DNA of 64,000 nucleotides from an uncultured Woeseiaceae bacterium. GTDB lineage: Bacteria; Acidobacteriota; Vicinamibacteria; Vicinamibacterales; UBA823. Positions 33,636 through 59,482 of this stretch are shown here, in pieces. A program made the translations under genes and the position numbers. The notes under the pieces were generated by a model. It saw only the letters and a program-made list of their open reading frames with translations. It did not search any database and had not been told where the DNA came from. The stretch spans positions 2,185 through 66,184 of the forward strand of contig CAZMUA010000002.1 of NCBI GenBank assembly GCA_964569695.1, in the 5' to 3' direction. How positions within the stretch are numbered: the first letter of the stretch is position 1; each line of letters starts with the position of its first letter.

Positions 33636-33663
33636 TTGATAGAAAATACTTGCAGTGTTGATT

Positions 33664-33677: not shown

Positions 33678-33747
33678 TATGTTGTCGTCAAGTCGATTCG
33701 ATTTACATGAGGAATAACGTCGCGTTTGTTTTAGGGAGGCTCGTTGT

Positions 33748-34650: not shown

Positions 34651-34659
34651 TGGGAGCTA

Positions 34660-39563: not shown

Positions 39564-39566
39564 GAG

Positions 39567-41204: not shown

Positions 41205-41235
41205 TCTCGGGTTTGAGGTGTAGCGGATAAGCGGT

Positions 41236-42594: not shown

Positions 42595-42640
42595 AGATGG
42601 TAACTGCCAAGTAGGTGTTTGCCTGTAGGAGAGTAATGTC

Positions 42641-44344
42641 ATGTTTGACCGCATGCAGTTATTACGATGGACTGTTTGCCTCGGCCTCGTATTCTTCGGC
42701 GCCTGTTCGACAGGGAACGAAAATGTCGAAGAAGAGCCATCCAATACAACCACGACCCAATCGACCCGTCCCAACATCCTTTTGATCGTTGCTGACGATT
42801 TAGGGTATGGAGACATCGGTGCTTTTGGCAGTGAGATTGATACCCCAGAGCTTGATGCACTCGCCCGGGACGGGGCGCGTTTTACTAGGTTTTACACGCA
42901 GGTCTCCTGTTCGCCCACGCGGGCGCTGCTCATGACCGGTGTGGATAATCATCTTAATGGTTTGGGAACGATGGCTGAAGATCTCTTGCCGCATCACGAT
43001 GGAGTGCCAGGGTATGAGGGTTACCTGAATGACAGGGTGGTCACTGGTGCCCAGTTACTCAAGGACGCAGGCTACCATACCTACCTGACCGGGAAGTGGC
43101 ACTTAGGGTTGACTCCCGACAAGTATCCCTCTCAGCGTGGCTTTGAGCGTACATACGCCTCGTTGGTTGGAAACGTGAATCACTTTAATGGCCGTTACCT
43201 TGAGGATGGAAAAATTATCAATGGAGATGGATATTCAAGCAATCTATTTACTGACAAATTAATTGAAGCGATTGAAAGTAATCATGGGGATGGGCGTCCA
43301 TTTTTTGGAGCGCTTCTGTTTACTGCACCGCATTGGCCGCTCCAGGCACCGCCGGCATTGATTGAGAAGTACTTGAATCGTTATGTAGACGGTTGGGATG
43401 TGACGCGGCAGGGACGCTTCGAACGTCTGAAGGAGATGGGTTTGGTGCCCGCCGATATGGGGTTACCACCAAGAATAGAAGAGGTTCCGGATTGGAGTGA
43501 TCTGACAGACAAGGAACGTCAGATTGAGACCAAGAAGATGGCAATATATGCGGCGATGGTCGACAATCTTGACACCAACGTCGGTCGTATTCTTGACCTA
43601 CTTGAGACACTCGGTGAGTCCGAGAATACACTGGTCGTGTTTATGTCAGACAATGGCACCGATCCCTATGATAGAAGTCAACGACCCATGTACGTCGCAC
43701 GCCGAACAGAACTAGGTCTCAATACCAGCTATGAGGACATGGGAACAGACAAGTCGTACGTCTTCTACGGGCTTGGTTGGGCTCAGGTTGGTTCAGTGCA
43801 TCATCGGCACTACAAATTCTTACCATCGGAAGGTGGCATGCATGCTCCGATGATTGCTCGTTTTCCAGGGGTGTTGATACCGGGTGATGACCTGGATGCA
43901 TTTGCTAGTGCTGTCGATATCACGCCGACATTCCTGGACGTTGCTAATGTGGAACACCCTGGGACGGAATACCGTGGGCGAGAAATCTACCCAATGCGAG
44001 GACGTTCGCTACTACCTTACATGAGCGATAGTCTGAATGTTCCCTACGGTGACGACGACCCGGTTGCGTTTGAAATCTATGGGCACAAAGTTGTTTTTAT
44101 GGGTCCGTGGAAAGCTGTTCAGTTGCGCCAGCCGTGGGATCAAAGTATTTGGCGCCTATACAACTTAAATCTGGATCCTGGTGAACAGCAAGACCTCGCG
44201 TACGACGAGCCTGAGGTGTTAACGATACTGATAGACGCGTATGAAAGTTTTGCAAAAGAAAATGGCGTAGTGGATGAGCCAGCCGATGTGCCGCCCTTTC
44301 CTTACAAGCCTGGTCATCTTGGGGACCTGATTGTTGAACGTTAG
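42641..44344 (+). CDS. Arylsulfatase (formylglycine-dependent sulfatase family), probable lipoprotein
   Basis: LLIVADDLGYGD and the C-x-P-x-R maturation motif in CSPTRALLMTG. The signal peptide ends with a lipobox-like FFGAC. Confidence 0.9.
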   Translation: MFDRMQLLRWTVCLGLVFFGACSTGNENVEEEPSNTTTTQSTRPNILLIVADDLGYGDIGAFGSEIDTPELDALARDGARFTRFYTQVSCSPTRALLMTGVDNHLNGLGTMAEDLLPHHDGVPGYEGYLNDRVVTGAQLLKDAGYHTYLTGKWHLGLTPDKYPSQRGFERTYASLVGNVNHFNGRYLEDGKIINGDGYSSNLFTDKLIEAIESNHGDGRPFFGALLFTAPHWPLQAPPALIEKYLNRYVDGWDVTRQGRFERLKEMGLVPADMGLPPRIEEVPDWSDLTDKERQIETKKMAIYAAMVDNLDTNVGRILDLLETLGESENTLVVFMSDNGTDPYDRSQRPMYVARRTELGLNTSYEDMGTDKSYVFYGLGWAQVGSVHHRHYKFLPSEGGMHAPMIARFPGVLIPGDDLDAFASAVDITPTFLDVANVEHPGTEYRGREIYPMRGRSLLPYMSDSLNVPYGDDDPVAFEIYGHKVVFMGPWKAVQLRQPWDQSIWRLYNLNLDPGEQQDLAYDEPEVLTILIDAYESFAKENGVVDEPADVPPFPYKPGHLGDLIVER

Positions 44345-45599: not shown

Positions 45600-46922
45600 A
45601 TGCAGGAATATATATCCAAACTGTTAGACCGAAATGAAATGCGCATCGTTGACCGAGAGGTCAACCCCAAACACGAGCTAGCAGCAGTTGTTGCTAGATC
45701 TCAAAAGGAAAGTGCGCTTCCCATTTTGTTTAAACGGGTCCAGGGAACCGAGTTTCCGGTGGTATGCAATCTTTACGGTAGTAGGTCGCGCCTGAAAGAA
45801 ATGGTTGGTGCCGGTGAGAGAGGTTTTTGTGAACACTGGGCGGAAACGATTAACGACGGGATGTTGCTGGGTGATGATTATCCGACAGTCGTGGATATGT
45901 CCGGGGAACTTCAGAAGGGCCAGCTTTCAGATCTGCCGCAAATAGTCTGGCGCGAGAAGGACGCGGGACCTTATATCACTGCCGGTGTTGCAATTGCTAA
46001 GGACCCTGAAACTGGCGTGCCCAATCTAGCTTTTAGTCGGGCGATGATGATTGATGATAAGGAAATGCGTTGTTGCATAGATGTGGTGCAAGATCTTGCT
46101 AAGTATCATGCGAAAGCAGCAGCCATGAATAAACCATTGGAAATGGCTTGGTTAATCGGTGTCTCGCCGGCCGTATTCATGGCGGCATGCACCTCGATCT
46201 CTCTTGACCAGGATGAACTGAAAATTGCGGCTCAGCTGAATGGGGGCACTTTACCGATGCGTCAGTGTCAAGAACTGGATTTATTGATTCCAGCGGACAC
46301 CGGAATCGTTATCGAAGCACGGATCCGTCCTGACGAGCGCCGACCGGAAGCCCCATTTGGCGAGTTCATGGGTTATTACTGTAAAGAGAACAGGGGTTAC
46401 GTTGCTGACATTGCTGCAGTCAGTTGGCGCACTGGTTCATATTTTCAGGGATTATTATGCGGTTCAAGAGATGACCTCACGGCGATCTACGCGACTTATG
46501 CGACTCGGGTATACCGGAACCTAATTGGAGAGCTTCCAGGGATCATTGATGTTGCCTGTAACACCACGCTGTACTGCACAATTGTGAAGATCGACAAACA
46601 GTATGAAGGCCATCCGCAGCACGTCATGCTTAAGGTGTTCGCGACGAATCCTCATTACAATTTTGCATGCATGGTGGTAGACAGTGATATCGACATTAAT
46701 AATCTCAACGATGTGTGGTGGGCCTTTTTGGCGCGTGGCCCCGTCGATAAGCGCACCATGCTGATTGAGAACATACCGGGGGGATATGAATACCCTGAGG
46801 ACAACCCGCACAGGGGGCGTATCGGGATTGATGCTACCGCACCCTATGGCAGACTCGATGAGTTCCGACGGACCAGCACCCCGGGGGAAGACACGCTGGA
46901 TCTTTCTGAGTACTTGGCTTAA
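45600..46922 (+). CDS. UbiD-family (prenyl-FMN-dependent) decarboxylase
   Basis: The N-terminus ...LLDRNEMRIVDREVNPKHELAAVVARS...PILFKRVQG and the overall layout are UbiD-like. No ubiX is present in the window. Confidence 0.8.
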   Translation: MQEYISKLLDRNEMRIVDREVNPKHELAAVVARSQKESALPILFKRVQGTEFPVVCNLYGSRSRLKEMVGAGERGFCEHWAETINDGMLLGDDYPTVVDMSGELQKGQLSDLPQIVWREKDAGPYITAGVAIAKDPETGVPNLAFSRAMMIDDKEMRCCIDVVQDLAKYHAKAAAMNKPLEMAWLIGVSPAVFMAACTSISLDQDELKIAAQLNGGTLPMRQCQELDLLIPADTGIVIEARIRPDERRPEAPFGEFMGYYCKENRGYVADIAAVSWRTGSYFQGLLCGSRDDLTAIYATYATRVYRNLIGELPGIIDVACNTTLYCTIVKIDKQYEGHPQHVMLKVFATNPHYNFACMVVDSDIDINNLNDVWWAFLARGPVDKRTMLIENIPGGYEYPEDNPHRGRIGIDATAPYGRLDEFRRTSTPGEDTLDLSEYLA

Positions 46923-46957: not shown

Positions 46958-47221
46958 CTACCCGCCTTCGATGGCGGGAATAAAGTGTATTTCACTGTCT
47001 TCGTCAAGAGGGGCGTAAAGACCAAGATGGTCAACCGAACCGTTGATGGCAACGGTCATTCCAGGAGTGAGCGTATCTCCTTCACGTAACTGCTCCCCGA
47101 GGCCAGGGTATTTATTGTCTAATGCTCGAATGACCTGGCGGATGTTGGAGCCTGAGATTTCAACTCTTTCGTTGCCATTGGTGAAATGCTGTAGGTGAGT
47201 TGGTATCCAGATCCGATTCAT
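46958..47221 (-). CDS. MoaD/ThiS-superfamily ubiquitin-like sulfur-carrier protein, CysO-like, ending in Gly-Gly
   Basis: 87 aa. IWIPTHLQHFTNGNERVEISGSNIRQVIRALDNKYPGL...IHFIPAIEGG parallels my recollection of M. tuberculosis CysO (VSIPTILRPHTGGQKSVSASGDTLGAVISDLEANYSGI...VTILPAVAGG). Its ATG overlaps the stop of the Mo-subunit gene (ATGA at 47221-47218). Confidence 0.7.
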   Translation of the reverse strand: MNRIWIPTHLQHFTNGNERVEISGSNIRQVIRALDNKYPGLGEQLREGDTLTPGMTVAINGSVDHLGLYAPLDEDSEIHFIPAIEGG

Positions 47222-49503
47222 GATCCGCATCCGCGCTGTTTCTTCTTTAACTTTTCCAGGACGGCCCCGGGCGTCATGGGTAAGGCTGTCATTCGGATTC
47301 CGACGGCGTCATACAGAGCGTTTGCAAGAGCACCAGCTGGTGGCATGATGGAAGATTCTCCGACACCGCGAACACCAAAAGGATGGTTCGGGTTGGGTGT
47401 CTCTAATATTACGGTTTCGATGTCCGGCAGGTCTAGGGACGTGGGCATTCGGTAATCCAAGAGCGTAGTGTTCAAGAGGTGTCCTGCGTTATCGTACTGG
47501 TAGGCTTCACTTAAAGCCCAGCCAACTCCTTGGGCGACACCGCCTTGCATTTGGCCAGACACATAATCTGGATGAATGGCCTTGCCGACGTCCTGAAAAG
47601 CCGTGTAGCGTTGTATTTCAATTTTTCCAGTCTCAGTATCCACATCGATATCGACGAGGTGGACAGTCAACTGCGCCCCATTGGATTTTGGTGTCACACT
47701 GGATTGCACGGTGATGGGTCCACCAAGCTTTTCGAGTAAATGAGCCATCTCTGTGAATGTAAGCGTTGAGGTGGAATCTTTCTGATGGTTAAACACTCCC
47801 TCAGAGAATGTCACGTCAGTTTCATTAACATCCCAGTAGAGAGCTGCTCGTTCCGTCATCTGCCTCAGTAATTGCTGGGCCGCCTCGTAGACGGCAAGAC
47901 CGGTAGAGTGTGTGGTTCGGCTACCAACAGCCATAAAAGAAAATGCGATGGAGTCGGTATCAGGAATGGACACGGAGATAGAAGATACCGGTATGCCAAG
48001 GGTCTCCGCCGCTTGCATGGCCAGTGTCATTCGTGTGCCGCTAAGATCCGGAGTGCCGACGGAAAGCTTGACGCTACCATCAGGGTTAGCCGTAAGCACG
48101 GCACTAGACGTCATGCCAGCGCCAAACCACATTGCGTACGCGAGACCCCGTCCAGGGTTCTTACCTGTAAGAGGCGAGGTAAAGTGTGGATGTTTTTGGA
48201 CGGCTTTTAGTAAATTTTTTCCGCCAATTTTCTGGCAAGGGATTGCCGTGATCATGCGGTCGCCCGTCACCATGGCATTTGTGAGTCGTAATTCCAGTGG
48301 GTCAAGTTCCAGTTTACGCGCCAGAATATCTAGCATTGATTCCATCGCAAAGTTAACCGGCAGACCACCTGGTGCTCGGTACTGTTTCATTTTTGGTTTA
48401 TTTAGAAGCACATCATGGCCCAGTATTTTTTGGTCTGGTATGTTGTATCGTGCTGTGGCTTGCAGCGCGGCGGAGGTAACAGGTCCACCTGGATAGGCAC
48501 CCGCTTCATAGGCGAGAGTTAGGTCCGCTCCGAGCAAAGTTCCATCCTTCTTGGCAGCAAGCTTGACCCGAATGTTTGCACCCGGGCTAGGACCCGTGCC
48601 ACGTAACATGTCAGCACGAGACATCGCGATTTTGACCGGCCGTCCGGTTTGTTTTGCAAACATCGCAGCAATGGGTTCAATGTAGACTTGGTCCTTGCCT
48701 CCAAAGCCGCCGCCGATTTCCATCGGGGTCACTTTCACTTTGTTTAAGGGATGTCCCAAGATAAACGCCAACTGTTCACGAATGGCAAAATGTCCCTGAG
48801 TGCTGGTCCAGACACTCATGATGTCGTTGTGACTCCATTCTACGGTGACCGAGTGAGGTTCGATATACCCCTGATGTAAACAGCGAGTTTGAAAGTTTTC
48901 TTCTAGAACGTGGTCCGCGTTTTGAAATGCACGGTCAGTATCCCCGAGCTTGAGTTTAAAGCTGCCAGCATTGCTGTGGGATTTTTCGGTTTGCAGTATG
49001 AAGCGACCCGGCGAAAACGTTTCATGCAGAACAGGCGCATCATCTTTCAGAGCGTCTTCAATTTCTAGTACTGGTTCAAGTATTTCGTAATCGACCTCAA
49101 TCAGTTCCAGGGCTTGTTCTGCAATGTGGTAGTTGTCGGCGACAGCTGCTGCCACTGCATGACCATCATAGAGAGTCTTGTCACGCGCGATACAGTTTTC
49201 AGCAAGGTCTCTGATGTCGATTGTACTGGCACCACCATGGGGAATGACCGTGGATTCAAGTTGTGGAAAGTCTCCACCGGTCAAGACACCGTGAACGCCT
49301 GGCAAGGCGCGCGCTTTACTAGTATCAATATCTTTAATGATGGCGTGGGCATGAGGGCTTCGCAAAATCTTGCCAAATAACATTCTTGGTAAATGGATGT
49401 CATCAGCAAAACGTGCACGACCGGTGACTTTTTCGATGCCATCAGGTCGTTCGGGTGTCGTACCAATCACCTTGAAATCAACCTGACCCTCAGCGTGTTT
49501 CAT
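47218..49503 (-). CDS. Xanthine dehydrogenase/aldehyde oxidase-family molybdopterin-binding large subunit (substrate unknown)
   Basis: 761 aa with the a/b-hammerhead and MoCo-binding layout. The active-site-region loop reads QYRAPGGLP, the general hydroxylase type rather than the CO-dehydrogenase loop. Confidence 0.9.
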   Translation of the reverse strand: MKHAEGQVDFKVIGTTPERPDGIEKVTGRARFADDIHLPRMLFGKILRSPHAHAIIKDIDTSKARALPGVHGVLTGGDFPQLESTVIPHGGASTIDIRDLAENCIARDKTLYDGHAVAAAVADNYHIAEQALELIEVDYEILEPVLEIEDALKDDAPVLHETFSPGRFILQTEKSHSNAGSFKLKLGDTDRAFQNADHVLEENFQTRCLHQGYIEPHSVTVEWSHNDIMSVWTSTQGHFAIREQLAFILGHPLNKVKVTPMEIGGGFGGKDQVYIEPIAAMFAKQTGRPVKIAMSRADMLRGTGPSPGANIRVKLAAKKDGTLLGADLTLAYEAGAYPGGPVTSAALQATARYNIPDQKILGHDVLLNKPKMKQYRAPGGLPVNFAMESMLDILARKLELDPLELRLTNAMVTGDRMITAIPCQKIGGKNLLKAVQKHPHFTSPLTGKNPGRGLAYAMWFGAGMTSSAVLTANPDGSVKLSVGTPDLSGTRMTLAMQAAETLGIPVSSISVSIPDTDSIAFSFMAVGSRTTHSTGLAVYEAAQQLLRQMTERAALYWDVNETDVTFSEGVFNHQKDSTSTLTFTEMAHLLEKLGGPITVQSSVTPKSNGAQLTVHLVDIDVDTETGKIEIQRYTAFQDVGKAIHPDYVSGQMQGGVAQGVGWALSEAYQYDNAGHLLNTTLLDYRMPTSLDLPDIETVILETPNPNHPFGVRGVGESSIMPPAGALANALYDAVGIRMTALPMTPGAVLEKLKKKQRGCGS

Positions 49504-49985
49504 GGCTTCTGGTGGAGCTCTTTCGCAGCTTGAGCAACAGCTTTAATAATCCTGGTATATCCAGTGCATCGACACAGATTGTTGGCCAACCAAAGTCGAA
49601 TTCTTTCGTTCGATGGAAGAGGTTCGTGTGCCAATAAATCTTTGGCTGCCATGATGAGACCTGGAGTGCAGTAACCGCATTGCAAGGCGGTTTCTCGGAT
49701 GAACGCCTGCTGTAGAGGATGAAGCCTGTCTCCATCAGCCAGACCTTCAATGGTTTCGATGGATGCATTTTCTGTTTCAACTCCAAGTACGCAGCATGAA
49801 TTGACGGACACACCATCCAGAATGACTGTGCAAGCGCCACAGTTACCGTCATTACAGCCTTCTTTGGTGCCAGTTAATTGCAACCTATCTCGCAATATTT
49901 CAAGCAAGCTTTCTCGAGGTTCACAAAAGAATGTTTCTTCCTGACCATTAATGACAGTGGTAATCCGTGTGGTGTAGTCAGTCAT
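49500..49985 (-). CDS. [2Fe-2S]-binding small subunit of the molybdenum hydroxylase
   Basis: Cys clusters CNDGNCGACTV, CGYCTPG and NLCRCTGY. I trimmed the start to the ATG at 49985 (MTDYTT). The stop overlaps the large-subunit ATG (ATGA). Confidence 0.9.
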   Translation of the reverse strand: MTDYTTRITTVINGQEETFFCEPRESLLEILRDRLQLTGTKEGCNDGNCGACTVILDGVSVNSCCVLGVETENASIETIEGLADGDRLHPLQQAFIRETALQCGYCTPGLIMAAKDLLAHEPLPSNERIRLWLANNLCRCTGYTRIIKAVAQAAKELHQKP

Positions 49986-50862
49986 CAGTAACCGTCCCAC
50001 CAGCCCTGCGTACAGCCCTTTCAAGGGCACGTATTGTCATAATTCGCGTCAAGTCTCTTCGCTGGTCCGCTGTGCCCCGCAGGTCACTAATGGGTTTCGC
50101 GCAAGACATGGCAACATCTCCAGCATGGTCGATCGTCTTTCGATTGACAGGCTTATTTTTAATGGCATTACCAGCTTCGCTCACGAAGAGCGGCGTAGGG
50201 GCTACAGCACCAATGGCAATTCTCACGTCGACGAATCTGGTATGACTGGAGTCTAATTCAACTTCGGCAGCGGCATTGACTACCGCTATATCCATCTCAT
50301 TACGCGGAATGAAACGGTTGAAGGCTCCACCACTGTGTTTAGGTGGAGGAGGGAAGTGTAATTGTAGAAGCAGTTCATCATCTGCAAGCACATTTTTACG
50401 AGGACCTAGACAAAAATCTTTCACTGGAAGTGTTCGTGTGCCTCTTGAGCTCACGATTGTAGCCACAGCTCGCATTACGATAAGCGTTGGAATACTGTCG
50501 GCACTTGGCGATGCGTTACACAAGTTACCTCCTACTGAGGCGCGTCCCTGAATAGATGTGCCGCCGATGAGGCTTACTGAGTCAATCAGAGCAGGGTAGG
50601 TCTCCGCCACTTTGCGGGTGTCCCAAATGCGTCGACAGGAGGTTGCTGCGCCAAGGGTGAGTCCATCATCCTCCAATTCTATTTTGACCATTGTTGGAAT
50701 CTTCTTAGCGTCAATAACGACTAGGGGACGCAAATTACCTGACCGCATACCCACAATGAGGTCTGTGCCGCCTGCGAGCAATCGCGCATCCCGCCCGTAA
50801 CTGGTCATCATTGTTGTCAGTTCGGTTAGAGAAGACGGTGTCTTAAAATCAAAATTATGCAT
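49978..50862 (-). CDS. FAD-binding medium subunit of the molybdenum hydroxylase
   Basis: CoxM/XdhB-like with LLAGGTDLIVGMR, 294 aa. It overlaps the small-subunit start by 8 nt. Confidence 0.85.
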   Translation of the reverse strand: MHNFDFKTPSSLTELTTMMTSYGRDARLLAGGTDLIVGMRSGNLRPLVVIDAKKIPTMVKIELEDDGLTLGAATSCRRIWDTRKVAETYPALIDSVSLIGGTSIQGRASVGGNLCNASPSADSIPTLIVMRAVATIVSSRGTRTLPVKDFCLGPRKNVLADDELLLQLHFPPPPKHSGGAFNRFIPRNEMDIAVVNAAAEVELDSSHTRFVDVRIAIGAVAPTPLFVSEAGNAIKNKPVNRKTIDHAGDVAMSCAKPISDLRGTADQRRDLTRIMTIRALERAVRRAGGTVTDD

Positions 50863-50900
50863 AAGGTGGTGACCTAGACTGTTAGGAACGCCACATTCGG

Positions 50901-51842
50901 TTAATCCAAGAATACGTATTCTGGCAGAAAGGCGGAGACCAGCCAGTTTGGTGGGCTGACGACTTCATTTATCTTAAGATCGACACAAACCGAACATAGG
51001 ACATAGGCTTCTTCTCGACTTAAACCTTTTTTATTCACAAGGTAATCGATCATGTAGCGCACCGCTCTTTGTGAACATTCATAGAGATCTGGACCATGCG
51101 CCGTGGTTGCAAACAATTCACTGTCAGTAGTTACGTTGTTGACCGCGCCGTGAACTCTTAACTGTGGTTCAGAAATGTGGTGGGAGTCCAACAATCTAAA
51201 ACGTAATGTAATTTTTGCGGCCATTTCAATGGCAGTAATACAGACTTCACCATCACCTTGTGCGGCGTGGGCATCACCTACACAGAACAGGGCGCCCTCG
51301 ACAAACACTGGTAGGTACAGAGTGCTGCCAGCGCACAGATATTTAATATCCATGTTTCCACCGTTCTGGCGGGGTGGGATAGTGCTGTGTGACCCAGATT
51401 CATTTAAGGCGGTACCTAGAATTCCAGGAAATGGCATGATAGAGACCGCGATATCCGATCGCTGTTTCATTCGGGCCATTTTTTGGTCAGACAGGTCCCA
51501 TATTTGCAGATAATGATTCGGGAATTCTTCCTTAGGTAATAGTCCACGGCCAGGTCGTATTGCCGTCCAGCCAAATCCTAAGCTAGGGCGAACCTCAAGA
51601 ATTTCAACGGCTAGTGTATCGCCTGGTTTAGATCCGCGTATAAAAACAGGACCAGTGAGTGGATGGCCCACTAAAGGTCCTTTTTCTTTTACGTCTCTGG
51701 CTGTAGAGTTCTCGCTGTAATAGTGATCTGCTGAATCCCTAGTATCAAATACTACGGTGTCGCCTGACTCAATTGTGAGTCTGGCTGGAGTGCTTTGATC
51801 CCAGCTGTAAGAGACCACGCTATCATCAAGATAGTGTTCCAC
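50901..51842 (-). CDS. Acetamidase/formamidase-family amidohydrolase
   Basis: FmdA/AmdA-type blocks HPLTGPVFIRGSKPGDTLAVEI and GGNMDIK...VGDAHAAQGDGEVC. Confidence 0.8.
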   Translation of the reverse strand: MEHYLDDSVVSYSWDQSTPARLTIESGDTVVFDTRDSADHYYSENSTARDVKEKGPLVGHPLTGPVFIRGSKPGDTLAVEILEVRPSLGFGWTAIRPGRGLLPKEEFPNHYLQIWDLSDQKMARMKQRSDIAVSIMPFPGILGTALNESGSHSTIPPRQNGGNMDIKYLCAGSTLYLPVFVEGALFCVGDAHAAQGDGEVCITAIEMAAKITLRFRLLDSHHISEPQLRVHGAVNNVTTDSELFATTAHGPDLYECSQRAVRYMIDYLVNKKGLSREEAYVLCSVCVDLKINEVVSPPNWLVSAFLPEYVFLD

Positions 51843-51846
51843 GATT

Positions 51847-52689
51847 CTACAAAACCTTTGGCCACACTACCCATCCCGAGCTGCAACGCCAGGAATAGGA
51901 TTTTACATAATCGAGTACTGTTGCGGGGCCTTTGGTCGCCGCCATCACTAGAATCCACGCTATCAATTCTGCGGTGCCACCTGAGCCTGCCTCTTCCATT
52001 TTCTCAAGAGTGCATTCTCTAAGCACCTTCTGGTGGTCTCCTTCGGCCATTAGATCGAGAAACCATTGATCGAACTCATCATCAATGTGGAAATAGCGAG
52101 GTCCTCCAGGTTCGTGAGAGAGCCCACCAGATCCTACAAATACAACGCGGTCGTCACTAGAAAAACTTTCGACAATCTTAACCATTAACTTGCCAACTTC
52201 GTATGCTTCCGTTGGAGTTGGAATAGGGGGACATGCGAAATTAATGCTGATTGGAACCATTGTTATTTTGTTGTCAGGATTGAGCCAGCATGTAGGAACT
52301 GAGATGCCATCATCAAATTTCATATCTCTGAGATGCGCCATAGGAAGCCCATTCTTTGCAGAGGCGTTGACAATGTGACGGGCAAGTTCCGGGTGACCAG
52401 CGACGCGATATTTTTTTTCTTGGTTTAACCAGCTGTCATACCAGTCCGCTGGCCCAACGTGTTCTGACCCAATACCTACGGTGTAAGAAGGTAGGTTGTT
52501 AATAGGCCAGTTCAACAAATGGTCATTCGAAAATACGATCATTACATTTGCATCTCTATCCGCCATGTAAGCTCGCATTTTAGAAAAAGCATTAATGGCA
52601 GCTTCCTGTTGTTCTTCTGGTGCGTCCTTAAACCAACCTAAAAGACCAGGGGTATGAGTGGTTGCCATAGCGCCAACGATTTCAGCCAT
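51847..52689 (-). CDS. Class III extradiol ring-cleavage dioxygenase, catalytic (LigB-like) subunit
   Basis: MAEIVGAMATTHTPGL..., VFSNDHL and GSGGLSHEPGG are LigB-type blocks. I trimmed the start to the ATG at 52689, which overlaps the upstream small-subunit stop by 8 nt. Confidence 0.7.
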   Translation of the reverse strand: MAEIVGAMATTHTPGLLGWFKDAPEEQQEAAINAFSKMRAYMADRDANVMIVFSNDHLLNWPINNLPSYTVGIGSEHVGPADWYDSWLNQEKKYRVAGHPELARHIVNASAKNGLPMAHLRDMKFDDGISVPTCWLNPDNKITMVPISINFACPPIPTPTEAYEVGKLMVKIVESFSSDDRVVFVGSGGLSHEPGGPRYFHIDDEFDQWFLDLMAEGDHQKVLRECTLEKMEEAGSGGTAELIAWILVMAATKGPATVLDYVKSYSWRCSSGWVVWPKVL

Positions 52690-53062
52690 TCTTTTCCTCC
52701 GCCACGTCCCATTTACTACCACCGATAGCGGCCTTAGATTCATCTGGAAAGGCTTTCTGGTAGGCAGTCAGTGCTGGGTGGGTATTGGTCATTCCAGTCT
52801 CACCGTAGGTAAGTCGCAGAATGTGTGGAATTAGATATTGGTGTACCCCAATATCCATCAGAACTCTTGGGCTGGGCTCACCTATGAGTGCATCTATTTC
52901 AACTTGACTGAGACCAAATTGTCTACATACTCCTTCTCGGTCAGTATTCCAACGTTTCCGAAGTTCAGGATCTTTTCTGACGTAATAAACCATTTCGTTG
53001 GTTGGAAGCGTTTTATCTACGCGATCAACATTTCCCATATCCTTATCCGTCACCCTTAACAT
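52682..53062 (-). CDS. Small (LigA-like) subunit of the extradiol dioxygenase
   Basis: A 126-aa helical protein immediately upstream of, and overlapping, the LigB-like gene. Size and position fit LigA. The sequence assignment itself is weak. Confidence 0.5.
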   Translation of the reverse strand: MLRVTDKDMGNVDRVDKTLPTNEMVYYVRKDPELRKRWNTDREGVCRQFGLSQVEIDALIGEPSPRVLMDIGVHQYLIPHILRLTYGETGMTNTHPALTAYQKAFPDESKAAIGGSKWDVAEEKNG

Positions 53063-53091
53063 GAACTAAAAAACTTAACTCTCTTTATAGT

Positions 53092-54339
53092 TTAACTCGA
53101 ATGTTTGCCAGGGGCGATTAAACCATCGTTAGTCCAGCGGTCAAATATTTCTAGCGCTTTCTCTGTAAACCGGCTGTCGTTGATGTGATGATCGAGTGGG
53201 TGATATTCGACAGCGGTTGAAAGTTCGGCCTCAATGGTCCTTGCAAAGGTTGCGAGGCCATCAGGGTCTCTAAAGGGCTGTCCCACACGGTCCCATTCAT
53301 CAATACCTTTCAGTGGCATGATAAATGCTGTAGGTCCGATCGCCTGATTGAGTTTCTTGGCTATTGTTTCAGCCGCACTTACTTTTTCTTCCTTCGTCAA
53401 GATGGCAGAAGAGATTAGTCGATTATGTATATGAGTTCCTCTTTCACGGAGCAGTTTTTGCGGGGCGTCCCAACTCTGGAAATCAACCAAGGTCACACCA
53501 CCAGGCGCGACGATCTGCGGAATACCATTCTTTCCAGCTTTTTGAAGGCGATCGTTGCCGGCAGTAACAACGGAGCCCAATTGATGGTTGCTTACCTCCA
53601 CCAAGCAGAAATCTAGGACGGCCGCTAATTCACCTTTCGCCAACATGGACTCCATAGCTCGTCCACCCATACCAGTGGCATGAAAGACTGCGACATCATA
53701 GCCCCGGTGTTCAAGTTCGGGTTTGAGTTCTACCATGTATTTGAGCGAGCTCTTCCCAAGTGAGGAGATGCCGACAATAGGACGTTCGATCAGAATTTGT
53801 GTAGAGAACTGACATGCGCCAACAATGGCGCTTGCAGCTTGTCTCAGGATCGATTCACAAATTGGGTTGAGCCCGTATAACCCACCCGACCATAAAATCA
53901 TCATAACATCTGCGGAAATTCGATCTGGAGGGAGCAAGGGAGAGTAGGCGACCGTGGAAGCTATTAACTTTGGGAAGCCCAGCGGTAGAGCGGCAACCAC
54001 ATCCAGCGCAAGGTCCGTGGCCATCGTGCCACCTATCGCGAGCACTCCATCGATTTTTCCAGATTGCTGGAGCGATCGAACTAGCAACGCGGCGCCTTCC
54101 GCTTGCCGAGTCATCGCGAGATTTTCGTTACCTAGGGCGATAATAGCTTCGTTAGTGGTATTAGCAGCGGCAGCCACATCATGCTTGCTGTAATCGGCTT
54201 CAAAGTTCGGAGTCCCTAGAACTCCTATATCCATGACTCTTGGGAGAGCGCCAGCTTCTTCAACACATGATTTGAGAAATAGTAGCTCATCACCCTTGGT
54301 GTCAGCGGTTCCGATAATCAGGACGACTTTTTTATCCAT
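53092..54339 (-). CDS. UPF0261 (Tm-1-like, putative nucleotide-binding) family protein
   Basis: The N-terminus MDKKVVLIIGTADTKGDELLFLKSCVEEAG matches the characteristic UPF0261 start (…GTxDTKGxEL…). The 415-aa length fits. Confidence 0.75.
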   Translation of the reverse strand: MDKKVVLIIGTADTKGDELLFLKSCVEEAGALPRVMDIGVLGTPNFEADYSKHDVAAAANTTNEAIIALGNENLAMTRQAEGAALLVRSLQQSGKIDGVLAIGGTMATDLALDVVAALPLGFPKLIASTVAYSPLLPPDRISADVMMILWSGGLYGLNPICESILRQAASAIVGACQFSTQILIERPIVGISSLGKSSLKYMVELKPELEHRGYDVAVFHATGMGGRAMESMLAKGELAAVLDFCLVEVSNHQLGSVVTAGNDRLQKAGKNGIPQIVAPGGVTLVDFQSWDAPQKLLRERGTHIHNRLISSAILTKEEKVSAAETIAKKLNQAIGPTAFIMPLKGIDEWDRVGQPFRDPDGLATFARTIEAELSTAVEYHPLDHHINDSRFTEKALEIFDRWTNDGLIAPGKHSS

Positions 54340-55693
54340 GCTGCTTGGTTAGCGCAGACAATCCAGCGTCAATCGCGTCAATAATGTTTTTGATGTGCTG
54401 ATTTGTGATGATAAGTGGTGGTGACAAGATAATATTGTTTCCAGAAATTCGAACCATCACGCCGTCGTTGTAAATTTCCTTCCCCACAAGCGCCATTGAG
54501 TTTTTATCTAATGCAGTTTTTGTGCTTCTGTCGCTAACTAGTTCCAATGCATGCATCAGTCCAATGCCTCTTGCGTCACCAATCCAGCGATGCAGTTTCT
54601 TAAGTTTCGTAAGACCTTGAGCTAATTCTTTACCACGCTCCCTAGAATTATTCGCCAAGTCGTTTGTTTTTAGTTCTTCTAGCATAGCTAGGGCGGCTGC
54701 CGCGCCTACAGGATGACCTGAATAGGTGTATCCATGATTGATTTCCCCCGCACCATCTGTGTTAGTTTCGAAAGTCTCAACGAGCCTCTCGCTGATCATA
54801 GTGGCCCCAAGTGGAAAGTAACCGTTAGTGAGAGCCTTCGCAATGCAAATGAGATCAGGGTGTACATTCCATAATCGTGAGCCGGTCCAGGCTCCAGTGC
54901 GTCCGAAAGCGGTAATGACCTCGTCTGCAATCAGTAAAATTCCGTGAGTGTCGCAGATTTGTCTGACGAGTGGCATAAAGCTGCTATCCGGAACGATGAC
55001 CCCGCCCGCGCCTAAAACGGGCTCCATAATAACCGCTGCAACCGTGTCAGGACTTTGCGAGGCAATCTCATCATCCAATTGCTGGGCACAGAGTTGGGCC
55101 AGACGATCTGATTTTTCTTCGTTAAATGGATTACGGTAGGTCCATGGGCAGGACACATGAAAACAACCTGGTAGGTAGGGCTCGTAATTGCGACGGAATT
55201 TGACATTACCATTAACTGAGGCTCCACCAAAGTGAGTGCCATGGTAGCCTTTTTTGAGAGCGATAAATTTGTAGCGGTCCTTGTCACCACGTATCTTGTG
55301 GTATTGCCTGGCCAATCGAAGAGCCGTTTCGACAGAATCTGAACCACCGGACGTAAAAAAGGCTCTCCTCATCTGTTCCTTGCCGAACCAGTTAGTAAGG
55401 TTTCGGGATAATTCCAATGTTTTGTCTGTCGTCACACCACGAAAAGAAGAGTAGTAGGGAAGTTCCTGCAGTTGTTGAGCTATTGCGTCTTTAATGGTTT
55501 GACAGGAATAACCTAAGTTGACATTCCACAGTCCGCCAACTGCGTCAAGGACTGTCTGGTTGTTAGTGTCTGTAACGAACACACCTTTCGCCGATTTGAT
55601 TGCGATTGGTGGGTCGTCTTGGACAGTTCCAGGGTGAGTCATGGGCTGCCAGAGTTCTTGCGTTTTTGTTTCCACGGAATAACTCCTAATCAA
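54332..55693 (-). CDS. Class III (omega-type) PLP aminotransferase
   Basis: FTSGGSDSVETA, the LLIADEVITAFGRTG block and the PDLICIAKALTNGY (Lys) block. It overlaps both neighbouring genes by 8 nt. Confidence 0.9.
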   Translation of the reverse strand: MIRSYSVETKTQELWQPMTHPGTVQDDPPIAIKSAKGVFVTDTNNQTVLDAVGGLWNVNLGYSCQTIKDAIAQQLQELPYYSSFRGVTTDKTLELSRNLTNWFGKEQMRRAFFTSGGSDSVETALRLARQYHKIRGDKDRYKFIALKKGYHGTHFGGASVNGNVKFRRNYEPYLPGCFHVSCPWTYRNPFNEEKSDRLAQLCAQQLDDEIASQSPDTVAAVIMEPVLGAGGVIVPDSSFMPLVRQICDTHGILLIADEVITAFGRTGAWTGSRLWNVHPDLICIAKALTNGYFPLGATMISERLVETFETNTDGAGEINHGYTYSGHPVGAAAALAMLEELKTNDLANNSRERGKELAQGLTKLKKLHRWIGDARGIGLMHALELVSDRSTKTALDKNSMALVGKEIYNDGVMVRISGNNIILSPPLIITNQHIKNIIDAIDAGLSALTKQHG

Positions 55694-56336
55694 TAGAGAG
55701 CAGATTCAACACCTGCTGATAGCTCGCTTTTGGTTGTTGGACCTTGAAATGTAGAGTTTGCATACCGATATTTCTAGCTCCTACAATATTGCGATATTGA
55801 TCGTCGACAAATACACAATGCGATGCTGGGATGGCTAATTCATCAAGACATTCTTGGAATGCACGTGGGTCAGGTTTCAGAATATTAGAGTAGCTGGCAT
55901 CCACTATCACGTTGAACAATTCCATGAATGGCAATTGCTTTCGAAAGTTGGCCCCATAGAACAGATCTAGATCATTAGACAAAATTGCCAACTTGCAACC
56001 CACAGCACTTGCTTTCTTGATCGCACTCAAGGCTTCTGGGCGAATAAACTGAGCGGGTTCTGCGCCGCGGGAGGCTTGAACAAAATCTGATACGGTGTTC
56101 CAATTCTTGCCACAGAGCGAGCCCACTTCCCGAGTGCGGGTCATCCAGTAATCCCGTTCTTCTATTTCTTCATTCTGAACAGCACGCCAAAGGGGATCCG
56201 ATTCGAGATCAAAGGGCCCGCGCCAGGTCAAAGTGCCTGCAGGTAAACCTAACGCTTGTTCGGTGAGGGCATGTGTTTCAAAAAGCGTACGGCTAATAAC
56301 GCCACCGAAATCTAATACCAAGGCTTTCTGAGTCAT
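55686..56336 (-). CDS. HAD-superfamily hydrolase
   Basis: MTQKALVLDFGGVISRT (motif I variant), LSND (motif II region) and VFVDDQ (motif IV). I trimmed the start to the ATG at 56336. Confidence 0.7.
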   Translation of the reverse strand: MTQKALVLDFGGVISRTLFETHALTEQALGLPAGTLTWRGPFDLESDPLWRAVQNEEIEERDYWMTRTREVGSLCGKNWNTVSDFVQASRGAEPAQFIRPEALSAIKKASAVGCKLAILSNDLDLFYGANFRKQLPFMELFNVIVDASYSNILKPDPRAFQECLDELAIPASHCVFVDDQYRNIVGARNIGMQTLHFKVQQPKASYQQVLNLLSID

Positions 56337-56516
56337 CAATATGTCGGTTCCCGATCGGACTAGAACGCAACTCGCGGCCAATAACAATCTTTAATGATAA
56401 GAATGCCATAGGAGGTCGCCGATTTTGTCGACCTTCCACATGATATGCTGATCTCATTATATTGAAACGATAGTAAGAATTATTGGATCAGAAGATATTT
56501 TATTAGCCGGATCGTA

Positions 56517-58022
56517 ATGATGACGAAAGCAACGACACCTGTGAAGCTAAGTGAACGCCCTCTGGCGCCAGGCCAGCATCTAATAGATGGGACTTGGATG
56601 GATAGTGTGGATGGATCTACCAAGGAAGTGATAAGCCCTATTGATGGGAAAGTTCTAACACGTATCGCGACAGGCGGAGAAGAAGACGTTGATCTCGCGG
56701 TTAGGGCAGCTCGGCGGTCCTTTGACTCAGGGGTATGGTCATTCATGTCACCGGCCCACCGTAAAAATGTGCTGACTCGACTTGCGGATCTTATCGACTT
56801 ACACAAGGAGGAGCTCGCCGTACTTGGTGTCCGAGATAACGGCACTGAGCTCAGAATGGCTCTTAAGGCAGAGTCGGGCAGTGCTGCTGGATCTTTTCGT
56901 TACTATGGAGAGGCAGTTGACAAGATCTATGGACAGATAGCCCCAACCGCTGAAGGGAGTATCGGCCTGATCTCTCGGGAGCCACTTGGTGTTGTTGGTG
57001 CAATTGTTCCTTGGAATTTTCCTCTTATGATCGCGGCCTGGAAAATTGCCCCTGCACTCGCTGCTGGTAATTCTGTTGTATTGAAACCCGCACAGTCGGC
57101 CTCTCTCAGTTTATTGGAACTGGCGCGGCTGGCCATGGAAGCTGGTATACCGAAGGGCGTCCTTAATGTTGTTACTGGAAGCGGGAGCGTTGTTGGGGAA
57201 GCTCTGGGCGTACATCCAGATGTCGACGTGCTAGCTTTCACAGGTTCGGGTGAGGTCGGACGACGTTTGTTGAACTATGCTGCCCAGTCCAATCTGAAAC
57301 GTGTCCATTTAGAATTGGGTGGGAAATCACCCAACATTGTTTTTGCGGACACACCAGATATCGATGTTGCGGCGGCTACGGCGGTTAACGGAATCTTCAG
57401 AAACTCTGGTCAGGTGTGCACTGCCGGCTCTCGCTTATTGGTGCAAGAGACTATTTATGAAGAATTTTTGGAGAAGGTAATTTCTGGAGCCGAACAGCTT
57501 GTTGTTGGCGATCCGCTAGACCCCGCTACTGATATTGGAGCAGTGCACACTTTGGATCAGTTGAAGAGCAACCTTGCGTATGTAGAAACGGCGATCGCTG
57601 AAGGTGCTGTGCTTCGTACGGGTGGAAAACGTCTCCATGAAAGTAGCGGTGGTTATTATATGGAGCCTACGGTTTTCAGCGAGGTCAGACCAGAAATGCG
57701 TATCGCTCAGGAAGAAGTGTTTGGGCCTGTTTTGGCGGTCACTTCGTTTAAGAACGAACAAGAGGCTATTGAACTTGCGAACTCTACCTCTTATGGTCTG
57801 GCTGCTGCGGTGTGGACTGGTGATTTGTCGCGAGCGCACCGCATGGTTCGCAGGATTAAGGCTGGATTGATTCATGTGAATTGCTATGGTGGTTCAGATA
57901 TTACCGTGCCTCTAGGGGGTATGAAACAGTCTGGAAGTGGGCATGATAAGTCACTGTTAGCTTTAGATAAATATACCGAGATCAAAACGGCCTGGATCAG
58001 CTTAAACGAAGGAACAAATTGA
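56517..58022 (+). CDS. NAD(P)-dependent aldehyde dehydrogenase
   Basis: VPWNFPL, LELGGKSP and GQVCTAGSR (catalytic Cys). 501 aa. It is divergent from the 10-gene operon. Confidence 0.9.
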   Translation: MMTKATTPVKLSERPLAPGQHLIDGTWMDSVDGSTKEVISPIDGKVLTRIATGGEEDVDLAVRAARRSFDSGVWSFMSPAHRKNVLTRLADLIDLHKEELAVLGVRDNGTELRMALKAESGSAAGSFRYYGEAVDKIYGQIAPTAEGSIGLISREPLGVVGAIVPWNFPLMIAAWKIAPALAAGNSVVLKPAQSASLSLLELARLAMEAGIPKGVLNVVTGSGSVVGEALGVHPDVDVLAFTGSGEVGRRLLNYAAQSNLKRVHLELGGKSPNIVFADTPDIDVAAATAVNGIFRNSGQVCTAGSRLLVQETIYEEFLEKVISGAEQLVVGDPLDPATDIGAVHTLDQLKSNLAYVETAIAEGAVLRTGGKRLHESSGGYYMEPTVFSEVRPEMRIAQEEVFGPVLAVTSFKNEQEAIELANSTSYGLAAAVWTGDLSRAHRMVRRIKAGLIHVNCYGGSDITVPLGGMKQSGSGHDKSLLALDKYTEIKTAWISLNEGTN

Positions 58023-59407: not shown

Positions 59408-59482
59408 CTGAACAGTGTGCATAGAGGGCGAAGTTTGACTTGCTGGCTAAGCAGTCTTCCATCCAGGGAATTGGAACACGCC

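Follow-up and report, generated by a model that had tools for sequence, protein, structure and literature searches.

What does an operon encode that carries a transaminase, a ring-cleaving dioxygenase, an amidase and a molybdoenzyme in a single row: one pathway, or several? The locus that raises this question lies in 64,000 nt of contig CAZMUA010000002.1 from an uncultured Woeseiaceae bacterium (assembly GCA_964569695.1), a stretch that we call the window. An initial annotation, made from the sequence without database searches, had read its ten-gene operon as following the logic of aerobic N-heteroaromatic catabolism, as in the nicotinate or picolinate pathways. On comparison with its relatives, the operon is instead a recent fusion of three separately conserved cassettes and not one conserved unit. 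Cassette A consists of a HAD-superfamily hydrolase, a class III aminotransferase (AT) and a UPF0261 protein, with an aldehyde dehydrogenase (ALDH) as divergent partner; cassette B holds LigA, LigB and an FmdA/AmdA-family amidase (Fmd); and cassette C holds the FAD, FeS and molybdenum (Mo) subunits of a molybdoenzyme and a small MoaD/ThiS-like protein. All three cassettes are uncharacterised but individually widespread, and the locus is a mosaic aromatic catabolic operon. Our preferred reading, to which we give even credence, is that the operon sits in an island of about 28 kb (30.8-58 kb) that would serve the catabolism of aromatic amino-acid-derived amines through homoprotocatechuate, and in which the cassettes were fused recently.

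Three cassettes in one operon

All ten open reading frames (ORFs) are present head to tail on the minus strand at 46958-56336 (Table 1), and every family assignment of the initial annotation holds in Pfam and NCBIfam scans. Eight of its nine junctions are also as it gave them (-8, 29, -8, 4, 38, -8, -4 and -4 nt), which supports tight coupling of the genes into one unit. The HAD-to-AT junction is -8 nt only with a TTG start; the GTG start at 55675, which has an AGGAG ribosome-binding site ahead of it and is the one picked by gene callers, gives +10 nt. The UbiD gene converging on the 3' end (35-nt gap) and the ALDH gene diverging from the 5' end (180 nt) were likewise recovered. A UPF0261 protein identical to that of the window occurs on 21 contigs; the gene order is the same at all six of the places shown, drawn from JGI, ENA and Logan samples, and a sister lineage at about 90% amino-acid identity has the same ten-gene order and spacing. 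Since independent marine metagenome contigs keep the gene order, the arrangement is no assembly artefact or chimera. In the sister lineage (L097, L098), a secreted metallo-beta-lactamase-fold gene (15775-16770, minus strand) lies between the ThiS-like gene and UbiD, a site where the window has only the 35-nt gap.

Short metatranscriptome contigs match seven operon genes, among them FeS, FAD, Fmd, LigB, LigA and UPF0261, plus UbiD, and one of these contigs (53046-53257) crosses the UPF0261/LigA junction. Promoter and terminator scans gave no signal above chance, two weak sigma-70-like matches at 56545-56497 (minus strand) included, and pointed to no terminator inside the operon. As had been reported, no regulator gene is present in the operon itself. 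An HpaR domain is encoded 11 kb away, however, and in the closest relative an IclR gene stands immediately upstream of HAD. We found no homologue in the window of this IclR gene, which sits in the same intergenic region in relatives.

The cassettes part company outside this lineage. A search with the UPF0261 protein gave 80 GTDB loci (50-67% identity), against which every window protein was compared. HAD, AT and the divergent ALDH are co-located in most of these loci, typically at 55-67% identity, and the ALDH partners that adjoin cassette A in most of them are 63-67% identical. Homologues of LigA, Fmd, ThiS and UbiD occur in none of the 80, and LigB, FAD, FeS and Mo queries found nothing above 26% identity there. 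Conservation of the whole operon is thus ruled out, because no GTDB locus found via UPF0261 holds homologues of cassette B or C. Conserved neighbourhood of UPF0261, LigAB, formamidase and Mo hydroxylase had been named as a check on the one-pathway idea: the trio of Mo enzyme, LigAB and Fmd does recur, and the UPF0261 part is independent, with a much wider distribution than the other cassettes. Cassette A was found in Rhizobiales (Ensifer, Rhizobium, Mesorhizobium, Bradyrhizobium, Brucella anthropi), Halieaceae, Porticoccaceae, Flavobacteriaceae, Saprospirales, Burkholderiales and one metagenome-assembled genome (MAG) of Bryobacteraceae, and its best GTDB relatives are in Halieaceae and other Gammaproteobacteria (64-67% identity).

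The nearest relative on long contigs (L087/L090; 72-79% identity) carries cassettes A and B+C as separate operons 7 kb apart. Its cassette A has the divergent ALDH and runs IclR-HAD-AT-UPF0261, followed by a LigA'B' pair (29% identity to the window LigB) and a CMD-family gene; in L087, it is translationally linked to this LigAB pair and faces a six-gene hpa meta-cleavage operon (6 kb), which lies between the cassettes on the other strand. The B+C operon runs LigA-LigB-Fmd, a 2,4-diaminopentanoate-dehydrogenase-like gene, FAD-FeS-Mo and an 87-aa ORF, with UbiD convergent at its end and an aromatic amino-acid decarboxylase beyond. Because the window has no homologue of the IclR, LigA'B', CMD or HpcH genes of this relative, its operon arose when about 7 kb were lost or relocated. 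In a third lineage (L100), the order is HAD(41%)-LigA-LigB-Fmd-FAD-FeS-Mo-ThiS with UbiD convergent and then decarboxylase-HyuA, and neither a transaminase nor UPF0261 is present. The fused state occurs only in the window lineage and its sister at about 90%. For high-GC soil loci, in which a simple ORF caller called antisense ORFs, we used tblastn counts. A UPF0261-LigA fusion protein (P0071, L089 1661-3235) was considered as a functional link between cassettes and rejected: at 1.97x coverage, its contig has both AT and ALDH split, which makes a frameshift artefact the probable cause of the fusion, and the LigA part of P0071 is of the other (LigA') type.

Cassette A and the homoprotocatechuate genes

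The initial annotation had called UPF0261 a family without assigned function, a statement overtaken by MarK (Saro_1862, PDB 9MPY) of Novosphingobium aromaticivorans, a UPF0261 protein described in 2025 as an ATP-dependent kinase of phenolic hydroxyls (PMC12624787). The ATP site of MarK is D14-T15-K16, with Lys16 needed for activity, and its phenol site, G195, H219 and H304, is conserved in >90% of homologues (PMC12624787). The window protein shares the two-domain architecture (PF06792, 147 bits; PF23189, 212.9 bits), and MarK is its best PDB match, at a modest 156 bits. Both sites are kept: D13-T14-K15 corresponds to the ATP motif and is invariant in homologues covering the N-terminus, and G195, H220 and H305 correspond to the phenol site and are invariant in 60 homologues. 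The pocket around the side chain differs, as the keto contacts I285 and H348 of MarK are Asp286 and Trp349 in the window, both invariant in the 60 homologues examined; F283 is replaced by Leu, Met, Ile or Cys in homologues (Leu284 in the window), and Thr196 by Lys in the window. We thus regard the window UPF0261 protein as a predicted phenol-OH kinase, and an acidic plus an aromatic residue would be expected where the ligand is a cationic amine.

The partners of this kinase set it apart from MarK. Like the acetovanillone pathway with its phosphatase, the operon includes a dedicated hydrolase gene. In place of the AcvCDE/HpeCBA-type carboxylase and AcvF/HpeD-type phosphatase of the acetovanillone/hydroxyphenylethanone pathway, however, cassette A has an amine transaminase and an ALDH; carboxylase families were found nowhere among the window ORFs scanned, and the hydrolase that accompanies the kinase is of the HAD type. 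The HAD protein is closest to NCBIfam model TIGR02247, below its cut-off. Its motif I reads L-D9-F-G11-G-V, in which Gly replaces the Asp+2 general acid/base typical of HAD phosphatases, and D-F-G is invariant in all 39 of the 39 homologues. Such a loss may be tolerable because an aryloxide is a good leaving group. AT scores 691 bits against NF005683, above the cut-off of 575, with the amine transaminases 6S54 and 5LH9 as best PDB matches (about 425 bits), and the best PDB matches of ALDH are KauB 6B4R, 5IUU (which we take to be the indole-3-acetaldehyde dehydrogenase AldA) and PuuC 4LIH. With a kinase for phenolic amines, these partner proteins agree only in part. Our literature searches found no published description of a HAD-AT-UPF0261 cassette.

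The main evidence on what cassette A does is its neighbourhood. At least one hpa gene lies within 10 kb of the cassette in 38 of 82 loci, and at least two do so in 24; they include HpaB, HpaC, a VOC-type HpaD (415 vs 321 bits), HpaR (144 vs 121), HpaG-like and CHMI genes. These hpa-linked loci span four phylum-level groups (Alpha- and Gammaproteobacteria, Bacteroidota, Acidobacteriota), and a pyridoxal phosphate (PLP)-dependent decarboxylase is present in eight cassette-A loci. The window itself contains a bona fide partial hpa pathway, which the initial annotation had overlooked together with the aromatic amino-acid decarboxylase: HpaD(Fe), HpaE and the HpaR domain score above curated cut-offs, and the HpaF, HpaG and HpaI-like genes below them. 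It has no clear HpaH and, differing from the standard pathway, no HpaBC hydroxylase in the window and an aldolase of the DapA family rather than HpcH. Conversion of an amine via an aldehyde to an arylacetate by AT and ALDH is the classical feeder logic of the homoprotocatechuate pathway. Compared with a tyramine or dopamine feeder, cassette A has a transaminase in place of an amine oxidase, with a kinase and a HAD hydrolase added. The hpa adjacency suggests that cassette A feeds (hydroxy)phenylacetates from arylalkylamines into this pathway, which would give HAD, AT and UPF0261 the place that the initial annotation had not seen for them.

In the route that we propose, a phenolic or catecholic arylalkylamine of the tyramine/dopamine type would come from the decarboxylase of the island or be imported, and the UPF0261 kinase would O-phosphorylate its ring hydroxyl. 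AT could then convert the O-phosphorylated amine to a phospho-arylacetaldehyde, ALDH oxidise this to the phospho-arylacetate, and HAD remove the phosphate to yield an arylacetate (homoprotocatechuate) for HpaD and HpaE. The phosphate may serve as a transient protecting group against quinone or aldehyde side-reactions, so that the kinase/hydrolase cycle would be analogous to the phosphorylate-transform-dephosphorylate logic of the acetovanillone pathway.

Cassette A has further companions elsewhere. Rhizobiales loci are accompanied by an APC-family permease. An APH-family kinase and/or a PRK06148-type class III 'aminotransferase' lies beside the cassette in many Rhizobiales and one Halieaceae MAG (L008, L019, L022, L031, L033, L036, L037, L041, L046, L052, L065, L067, L068, L070, L078), with both present in 12 loci. 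With its likeness to amino-alcohol kinase/phospho-lyase pairs, this pair might act on beta-hydroxylated amines, for example octopamine.

Cassettes B and C and the convergent UbiD gene

We examined cassette B in 80 metagenome loci found through LigB. The window LigA falls below its Pfam cut-off (23.5 vs 25.3 bits), and orthologues elsewhere do give a LigA match; a LigA homologue stands upstream of the LigB homologue in 74 of the 74 loci with room for it. LigB lies below every curated NCBIfam equivalog (best NF009901, 137 bits vs a cut-off of 290) and matches PDB 1B4U and 3WKU at about 80 bits. Its residues H57, H192 and E241 align with H61, H195 and E242 of the reference LigB and H12 is invariant (alignment A2), so that the Fe(II) ligands (His12, His61, Glu242) and the catalytic His195 of LigAB are all matched. 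No lig pathway genes for the downstream steps (LigC/I/J/K) are present. Fmd has a clear Pfam FmdA_AmdA match (203 bits vs 27) and reaches 142.9 bits against the NF045496 FmdA cut-off of 500; it is a short form of about 300 aa, with the short acetamidases 2II1 and 2F4L as best PDB matches. In 27 of 55 loci it immediately follows the LigB homologue and in 36 of them it is no more than 1.2 kb from it, and the LigB-Fmd gap, 4 nt in the window, is 8-49 nt in 26 of the 27 loci with Fmd directly downstream.

The LigA-LigB-Fmd triad also occurs without cassettes A and C, in five loci. Three of these (L091, L176, L177) have it with CMD, a thiamine pyrophosphate (TPP) enzyme, Amidohydro_3 and an MFS transporter, and L177 also has an ALDH; in L092, the triad stands with a decarboxylase, two aldehyde ferredoxin oxidoreductases (AFORs), a P450 and a cupin, and in L095 with two UbiD genes, two HyuAB pairs and a Rieske oxygenase. 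A large subunit of the xanthine dehydrogenase (XDH) family lies within 10 kb of LigAB in 18 loci outside the window's own lineage. Additionally, the genes that come after a LigAB pair of 40% identity in Bosea encode isochorismatase-family and Amidohydro_2 proteins; PicF and PicC belong to these families. No published description of a LigAB-formamidase unit was found in our literature searches.

The cassette C enzyme has the features of the XDH/CODH family: Mo-pterin, two [2Fe-2S] clusters, FAD and the catalytic Glu motif. Its Mo subunit carries GGGFGGK, YRAPG and GVGE (at 713), and the cluster cysteines of the FeS subunit are 44/49/52/64 and 103/106/138/140. All curated equivalogs for characterised substrate classes (xanthine, nicotinate, quinoline, 4-hydroxybenzoyl-CoA, aldehyde) are below cut-off; the Mo subunit comes closest to XdhA (464 bits vs 780), the FAD subunit to XdhB and the FeS subunit to the gamma subunit of glyceraldehyde dehydrogenase. 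The best PDB matches of the Mo subunit are the alpha subunit of 4-hydroxybenzoyl-CoA reductase, CoxL, KdhL and Qor, and carbon monoxide dehydrogenase was ruled out, as the Mo subunit is without the CSFR loop. We judge a hydroxylase role for this enzyme to be just short of evenly balanced, and a role as aldehyde oxidoreductase, for example on a ring-fission aldehyde, to be possible, if on the doubtful side.

The last gene of the operon encodes a ThiS-like protein (PF02597, 33.2 bits vs a cut-off of 22.5) with a free C-terminal GG (...IEGG) that is kept in four orthologous positions. Neighbourhoods of Mo-subunit orthologues, taken from plasmids and from loci found through LigB, place this gene after the Mo subunit in L090, L100, Sinorhizobium meliloti pSymA and a Marivivens plasmid. 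On pSymA (L093), the four-gene cassette FAD-FeS-Mo-MoaD/ThiS stands alone, and on the Marivivens plasmid NZ_CP127166 (L180) it lies near LacI, gluconolactonase and ALDH genes; both Mo subunits are 44% identical to that of the window, and no XdhC gene is annotated within the 9-10 kb shown on each side of either. Because the gene follows the Mo subunit in unrelated contexts, the ThiS-like protein belongs to the Mo-enzyme clade and not to the pathway, which answers the initial annotation's remark that it too had no obvious place. It would be an accessory of that clade, either a cofactor sulfur carrier or a fourth subunit, rather than a pathway enzyme. XDH-family enzymes usually need XdhC-type chaperones (PMC2997495). 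The window enzyme resembles XdhC-matured enzymes in its FAD, two-[2Fe-2S] and Mo-pterin subunits and its GVGE and GGGFGGK motifs and differs in having the MoaD/ThiS-like gene after the Mo subunit and no XdhC-family gene in the operon or the other ORFs scanned. No E1-like partner (MoeB/ThiF/MoeZ) or MoaE for the ThiS-like protein was found among the window ORFs scanned. The closest plasmid relatives of the ThiS-like protein (Ralstonia, Burkholderia) were rejected as context, since they stand in MoeZ/JAMM thiocarboxylate clusters unrelated to Mo enzymes. Literature searches yielded no published description of a MoaD-like partner of XDH-family enzymes; the hosts of L093 and L180 are cultured and thus convenient for testing its role.

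UbiD is conserved with cassettes B and C, in the same convergent position in L090 and L100, and its best PDB matches are HmfF 6H6V and the indole-3-carboxylate decarboxylase 7P9Q. A phenylphosphate-carboxylase-like reading (kinase, UbiD and HAD) was dropped because UbiD scores far under the cut-offs (phenyl_P_beta 90 vs 469 bits, phenyl_P_alpha 85 vs 565) and its gene lies on the opposite strand. The N-heteroaromatic logic of the initial annotation has support for this part of the locus: the Mo enzyme, LigAB and Fmd are kept with UbiD in three lineages (window, L090, L100), and both the PydA precedent described below and the genes after the Bosea LigAB pair speak for it. We propose, on weaker grounds than for cassette A, that an N-containing aromatic acid is the substrate of a second branch, made up of cassettes B and C with UbiD: the Mo enzyme would hydroxylate next to the ring N, UbiD would decarboxylate the product, LigAB would cleave the resulting diol and Fmd would take off the formyl or amide group. 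Candidate substrates, all speculative, are hydroxypicolinate-type products of ring-fission semialdehydes and ammonia, dihydroxyindole(-carboxylate)s from DOPA/dopamine oxidation and hydroxyquinolines from kynuramine-type amines.

Several known systems come close to this branch. The pic and nic pathways run through a three-subunit Mo hydroxylase, a non-oxidative decarboxylase, a ring-cleaving dioxygenase and a deformylase, and the window would have these enzyme roles in the same chemical order. All except the Mo hydroxylase come from other families: UbiD instead of the Amidohydro_2 protein PicC, LigAB instead of NicX/PicD and FmdA/AmdA instead of the alpha/beta hydrolases NicD/PicE. The NicC/PicB, NicX/PicD, NicD/PicE, NicF/PicF and NicE/PicG families, and with them a monooxygenase, a maleamate amidase and a maleate isomerase, are absent among the operon and flanking proteins. 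The furan pathway couples HmfABC, a Mo furoyl-CoA dehydrogenase, with the UbiD/UbiX decarboxylase HmfF/G. The window likewise pairs a UbiD, for which HmfF is the best match, with a three-subunit XDH-family enzyme that may act on a heteroaromatic acid, but it lacks a CoA ligase, UbiX and an HmfE-type hydrolase, and its LigAB and Fmd have no counterpart there. In the PydA/PydB degradation of 3-hydroxy-4-pyridone (3,4-dihydroxypyridine) by Rhizobium sp. TAL1145, the class III dioxygenase PydA opens the pyridinediol (PMC3637104). LigAB followed by Fmd parallels this system, in which a LigB-type dioxygenase opens an N-heteroaromatic diol, a hydrolase comes next and formate is among the metabolites detected (PMC3637104). 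The PydA motifs DDHFENH and EWICGM are unmatched (NDHLLNW and ELIAWI in the window), and the window has a LigA subunit and an FmdA/AmdA-family hydrolase. Judged by their defining features, the locus belongs neither to the nic/pic clusters or the lig pathway nor to the acetovanillone pathway or the phenylphosphate carboxylase system.

Competing readings and the wider island

The idea closest to the initial annotation is a linear pathway in which the ten enzymes together degrade a single nicotinate/picolinate-type N-heteroaromatic, with HAD, AT, UPF0261 and the ThiS-like protein as novel steps. The tight coupling of the ten genes, the RNA contig across the A/B joint and the retention of Mo enzyme, LigAB, Fmd and UbiD together in three lineages would all fit it. 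We nevertheless find it quite improbable, given that cassette A stands in 80 GTDB loci without homologues of the other cassettes and tied to hpa genes, that the relative at 72-79% has the halves as separate operons with their own regulator, that L100 holds cassettes B and C without AT or UPF0261, that the ThiS-like gene follows the Mo enzyme in unrelated contexts, and that no NicC/NicX/NicD/NicF or PicB-G type genes are present. The same unfused relative could be taken to mean the opposite extreme, a neutral rearrangement in which deletion of the IclR, LigA'B', CMD and hpa block made the cassettes co-transcribed by accident, with no shared logic of substrate or regulation; the missing IclR, LigA'B', CMD and HpcH homologues and the confinement of the fused state to the window lineage and its sister agree with this. 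Yet even the unfused cassettes are no more than 7 kb apart and share the decarboxylase, HyuAB and SNF genes as neighbours, and so belong to one island. The fused order, moreover, has outlasted a divergence of about 10% in the proteins without damage to any reading frame or to the short junctions. We consider a neutral origin improbable.

Two further alternatives accept the cassettes and change their chemistry. Cassettes B and C could carry out ordinary meta-cleavage of a carbocyclic catechol, with the Mo enzyme oxidising the ring-fission semialdehyde in the HpaE/LigC role and Fmd removing an exocyclic amide or N-acyl group, as from an arylacetamide or N-acyl catecholamine, so that no N-heterocycle is involved. 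Dioxygenase followed by semialdehyde dehydrogenase is standard pathway logic, the triad has differing aldehyde oxidisers elsewhere (ALDH in L177, two AFORs in L092), the best curated match of the FeS subunit is the glyceraldehyde dehydrogenase gamma subunit, and the 44% Marivivens homologue lies beside LacI, gluconolactonase and ALDH genes. Against this, Fmd is tightly joined to LigB (4-nt gap; 8-49 nt in 26 of 27 loci), which suggests that Fmd acts on the ring-fission product, and this in turn calls for a C-N bond where the ring is cleaved; among curated families, the Mo and FAD subunits come closest to XdhA and XdhB, UbiD is nearest to heteroaromatic acid decarboxylases, and the variable partner in L095 is a Rieske ring hydroxylase rather than an aldehyde oxidiser. 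On these points, we hold the carbocyclic alternative to be rather unlikely. For cassette A, the substrate could be an aliphatic amino alcohol or polyamine-like compound whose alcohol is phosphorylated, whose amine end becomes a carboxylate and which HAD then dephosphorylates, the hpa adjacency being incidental. This would suit an ALDH nearest to KauB, PuuC and the NCBIfam PuuC model, the APC-family permease in Rhizobiales and the 44 of 82 loci without an hpa gene within 10 kb; it is hard to square with the invariance of the phenol-binding G195, H219 and H304 (MarK numbering) in the subfamily, hpa genes beside the cassette in four phylum-level groups, amine transaminases as the best structural matches of AT, and the L087 cassette that is translationally linked to a LigAB pair and faces the hpa operon. 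It has, in our view, a slim chance of being right.

The amine-to-homoprotocatechuate reading with its second branch is itself opposed by several observations. All enzymes except HpaD, HpaE and HpaR score below curated equivalog cut-offs, and all substrates given here are predictions. The known substrates of MarK are phenols with keto or aldehyde side chains, not amines (PMC12624787). The role given to Asp286 and Trp349 is taken from an alignment with no structure behind it, and HAD, without Asp+2, may be no phosphatase at all. An aliphatic amino-alcohol substrate is possible because KauB and PuuC, which are aminoaldehyde dehydrogenases, are among the best ALDH relatives, and 44 of the 82 cassette-A loci have no hpa gene within 10 kb. 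For the second branch, the sugar-like surroundings of the Marivivens Mo cassette (44%), the FeS match to glyceraldehyde dehydrogenase and the ALDH or AFOR enzymes that accompany the LigAB-Fmd triad elsewhere would agree with a Mo enzyme that oxidises aldehydes. The window ORFs scanned include no UbiX, XdhC, MoaE or MoeB, and downstream enzymes for the deformylated ring-fission product are not evident. The RNA support, a handful of short contigs, could include DNA carry-over.

A broader version of the preferred reading is tentative and, we think, unlikely to hold in full. In it, phenolic or catecholic amines would be degraded by HAD-AT-UPF0261-ALDH along a widespread and so far undescribed 'phospho-protected' route, whose kinase has an amine-binding Asp/Trp pocket and whose unusual HAD without Asp+2 removes the aryl phosphate, spread over Rhizobiales, Brucella/Ochrobactrum, marine Gammaproteobacteria and Bacteroidota; LigAB-Fmd would open N-heteroaromatic diols made by a clade of Mo hydroxylases in which a MoaD-like protein replaces the XdhC chaperone. 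The link between a phenol-kinase family and aromatic-amine catabolism is the most interesting testable element. If true, it would give this family a second physiological role, in the catabolism of biogenic aromatic amines, which would occur much more widely than the use of acetovanillone and could be tested directly in Ensifer, Brucella anthropi or Pelagibacterium, all of them in culture. It would also add two further uncharacterised units, LigA-LigB-FmdA/AmdA and FAD-FeS-Mo-MoaD-like, that recur across soil and marine bacteria, and would point to the use by marine heterotrophs of dopamine/tyramine-type amines, possibly freed from sulfate esters by the neighbouring sulfatase. Should the reading fail, the locus would be an ordinary mosaic aromatic catabolic island.

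Table 1. Genes of the operon, its flanking genes and the hpa and other genes at 30.8-44.3 kb, with positions in the window
Feature	Position	Strand	Supporting match	Placement
HAD-superfamily hydrolase	55686..56336	-	Pfam Hydrolase/HAD_2	Cassette A
Class III (omega/amine) transaminase (AT)	54332..55675	-	Aminotran_3, 320.9 bits	Cassette A
UPF0261 / Tm-1-like ATP-binding protein, predicted phenol-OH kinase	53092..54339	-	Pfam UPF0261 N+C	Cassette A
LigA-like small subunit	52682..53062	-	Weak Pfam LigA	Cassette B
LigB-type class III extradiol dioxygenase catalytic subunit	51847..52689	-	Pfam LigB, 132.7 bits	Cassette B
Short FmdA/AmdA-family amidase (formamidase/acetamidase type)	50901..51842	-	Pfam FmdA_AmdA, 203 bits	Cassette B
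FAD-binding subunit, XDH-family molybdoenzyme	49978..50862	-	FAD_binding_5 + CO_deh_flav_C	Cassette C
Two-[2Fe-2S] subunit	49500..49985	-	Fer2 + Fer2_2	Cassette C
Molybdopterin-binding large subunit	47218..49503	-	Ald_Xan_dh_C, MoCoBD_1/2	Cassette C
MoaD/ThiS-like 87-aa protein, GG end	46958..47221	-	Pfam ThiS, 33.2 bits	Cassette C
UbiD-family (de)carboxylase	45600..46922	+	Pfam UbiD N, core and C domains	Converges on operon
NAD(P)-aldehyde dehydrogenase (ALDH)	56517..58022	+	Aldedh, 560 bits	Divergent partner of cassette A
Divergent intergenic region, presumed promoter region for operon and ALDH	56337..56516			180 nt
HpaD (Fe, LigB-type) 3,4-dihydroxyphenylacetate 2,3-dioxygenase	30817..31683	-	TIGR02298, 389.9 bits vs 316 cut-off	
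HpaE, 5-carboxymethyl-2-hydroxymuconate semialdehyde dehydrogenase	31708..33216	-	TIGR02299, 734 bits vs 638 cut-off	
CHMI (HpaF-like) isomerase	33225..33755	-	Pfam CHMI, 142 bits	
DapA-family HpaI-like aldolase + HpaG-like FAA-hydrolase-family protein	33748..35553	+	Both under curated equivalog cut-offs	
HpaR (MarR) domain fused to group II PLP aromatic amino-acid decarboxylase	35550..37460	+	HpaR TIGR02337, 140.6 vs 121.2 bits; Pyridoxal_deC	
HyuA-HyuB (ATP-dependent hydantoinase/lactamase/carboxylase family), SNF sodium symporter, lipoprotein sulfatase	37503..44344	+	Pfam	

In the hpa part of the island, HpaE homology reaches 33216. The decarboxylase has 4OBU, presumably the tryptophan decarboxylase of Ruminococcus gnavus, as its best PDB match (305 bits), followed by DOPA and tyrosine decarboxylases. 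Its fusion to the HpaR domain is a single 636-aa ORF, while relatives L090 and L100 have the decarboxylase alone (481-491 aa); the fused ORF could be a one-component regulator-enzyme or a recent read-through fusion. The HyuAB, SNF and sulfatase genes also adjoin the cassettes in L087 and L100, and the Hyu enzymes have a weak caprolactamase-beta match.

Genes of amino-acid catabolism abound throughout the window. At 339-11402 it encodes a TRAP transporter (DctPQM), another SNF symporter, BipA and enzymes of histidine utilisation (a HutI-like amidohydrolase, urocanase and histidine ammonia-lyase). Minus-strand genes at 17145-22839 encode DUF1552 (HXXSHH) and DUF1592/PSCyt 'planctomycete-type' proteins next to a protein of 603 aa that consists almost wholly of ankyrin repeats. 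Upstream of the hpa genes, at 22907-27472, we detected a creatininase-family protein, two DAO-family FAD oxidoreductases and an SDR, which together with HyuAB recall creatinine/N-methylhydantoin-type metabolism. Beyond ALDH, 58786-63788 holds a secreted DsrE-like protein (second copy at 16323-16910), a DUF6152 protein and a sulfite-oxidase-like Oxidored_molyb protein, along with a class I/II aminotransferase with a Tat-type signal peptide (59849-60994). Possibly a periplasmic module for sulfur or molybdenum, this stretch stays next to the operon in every source contig.

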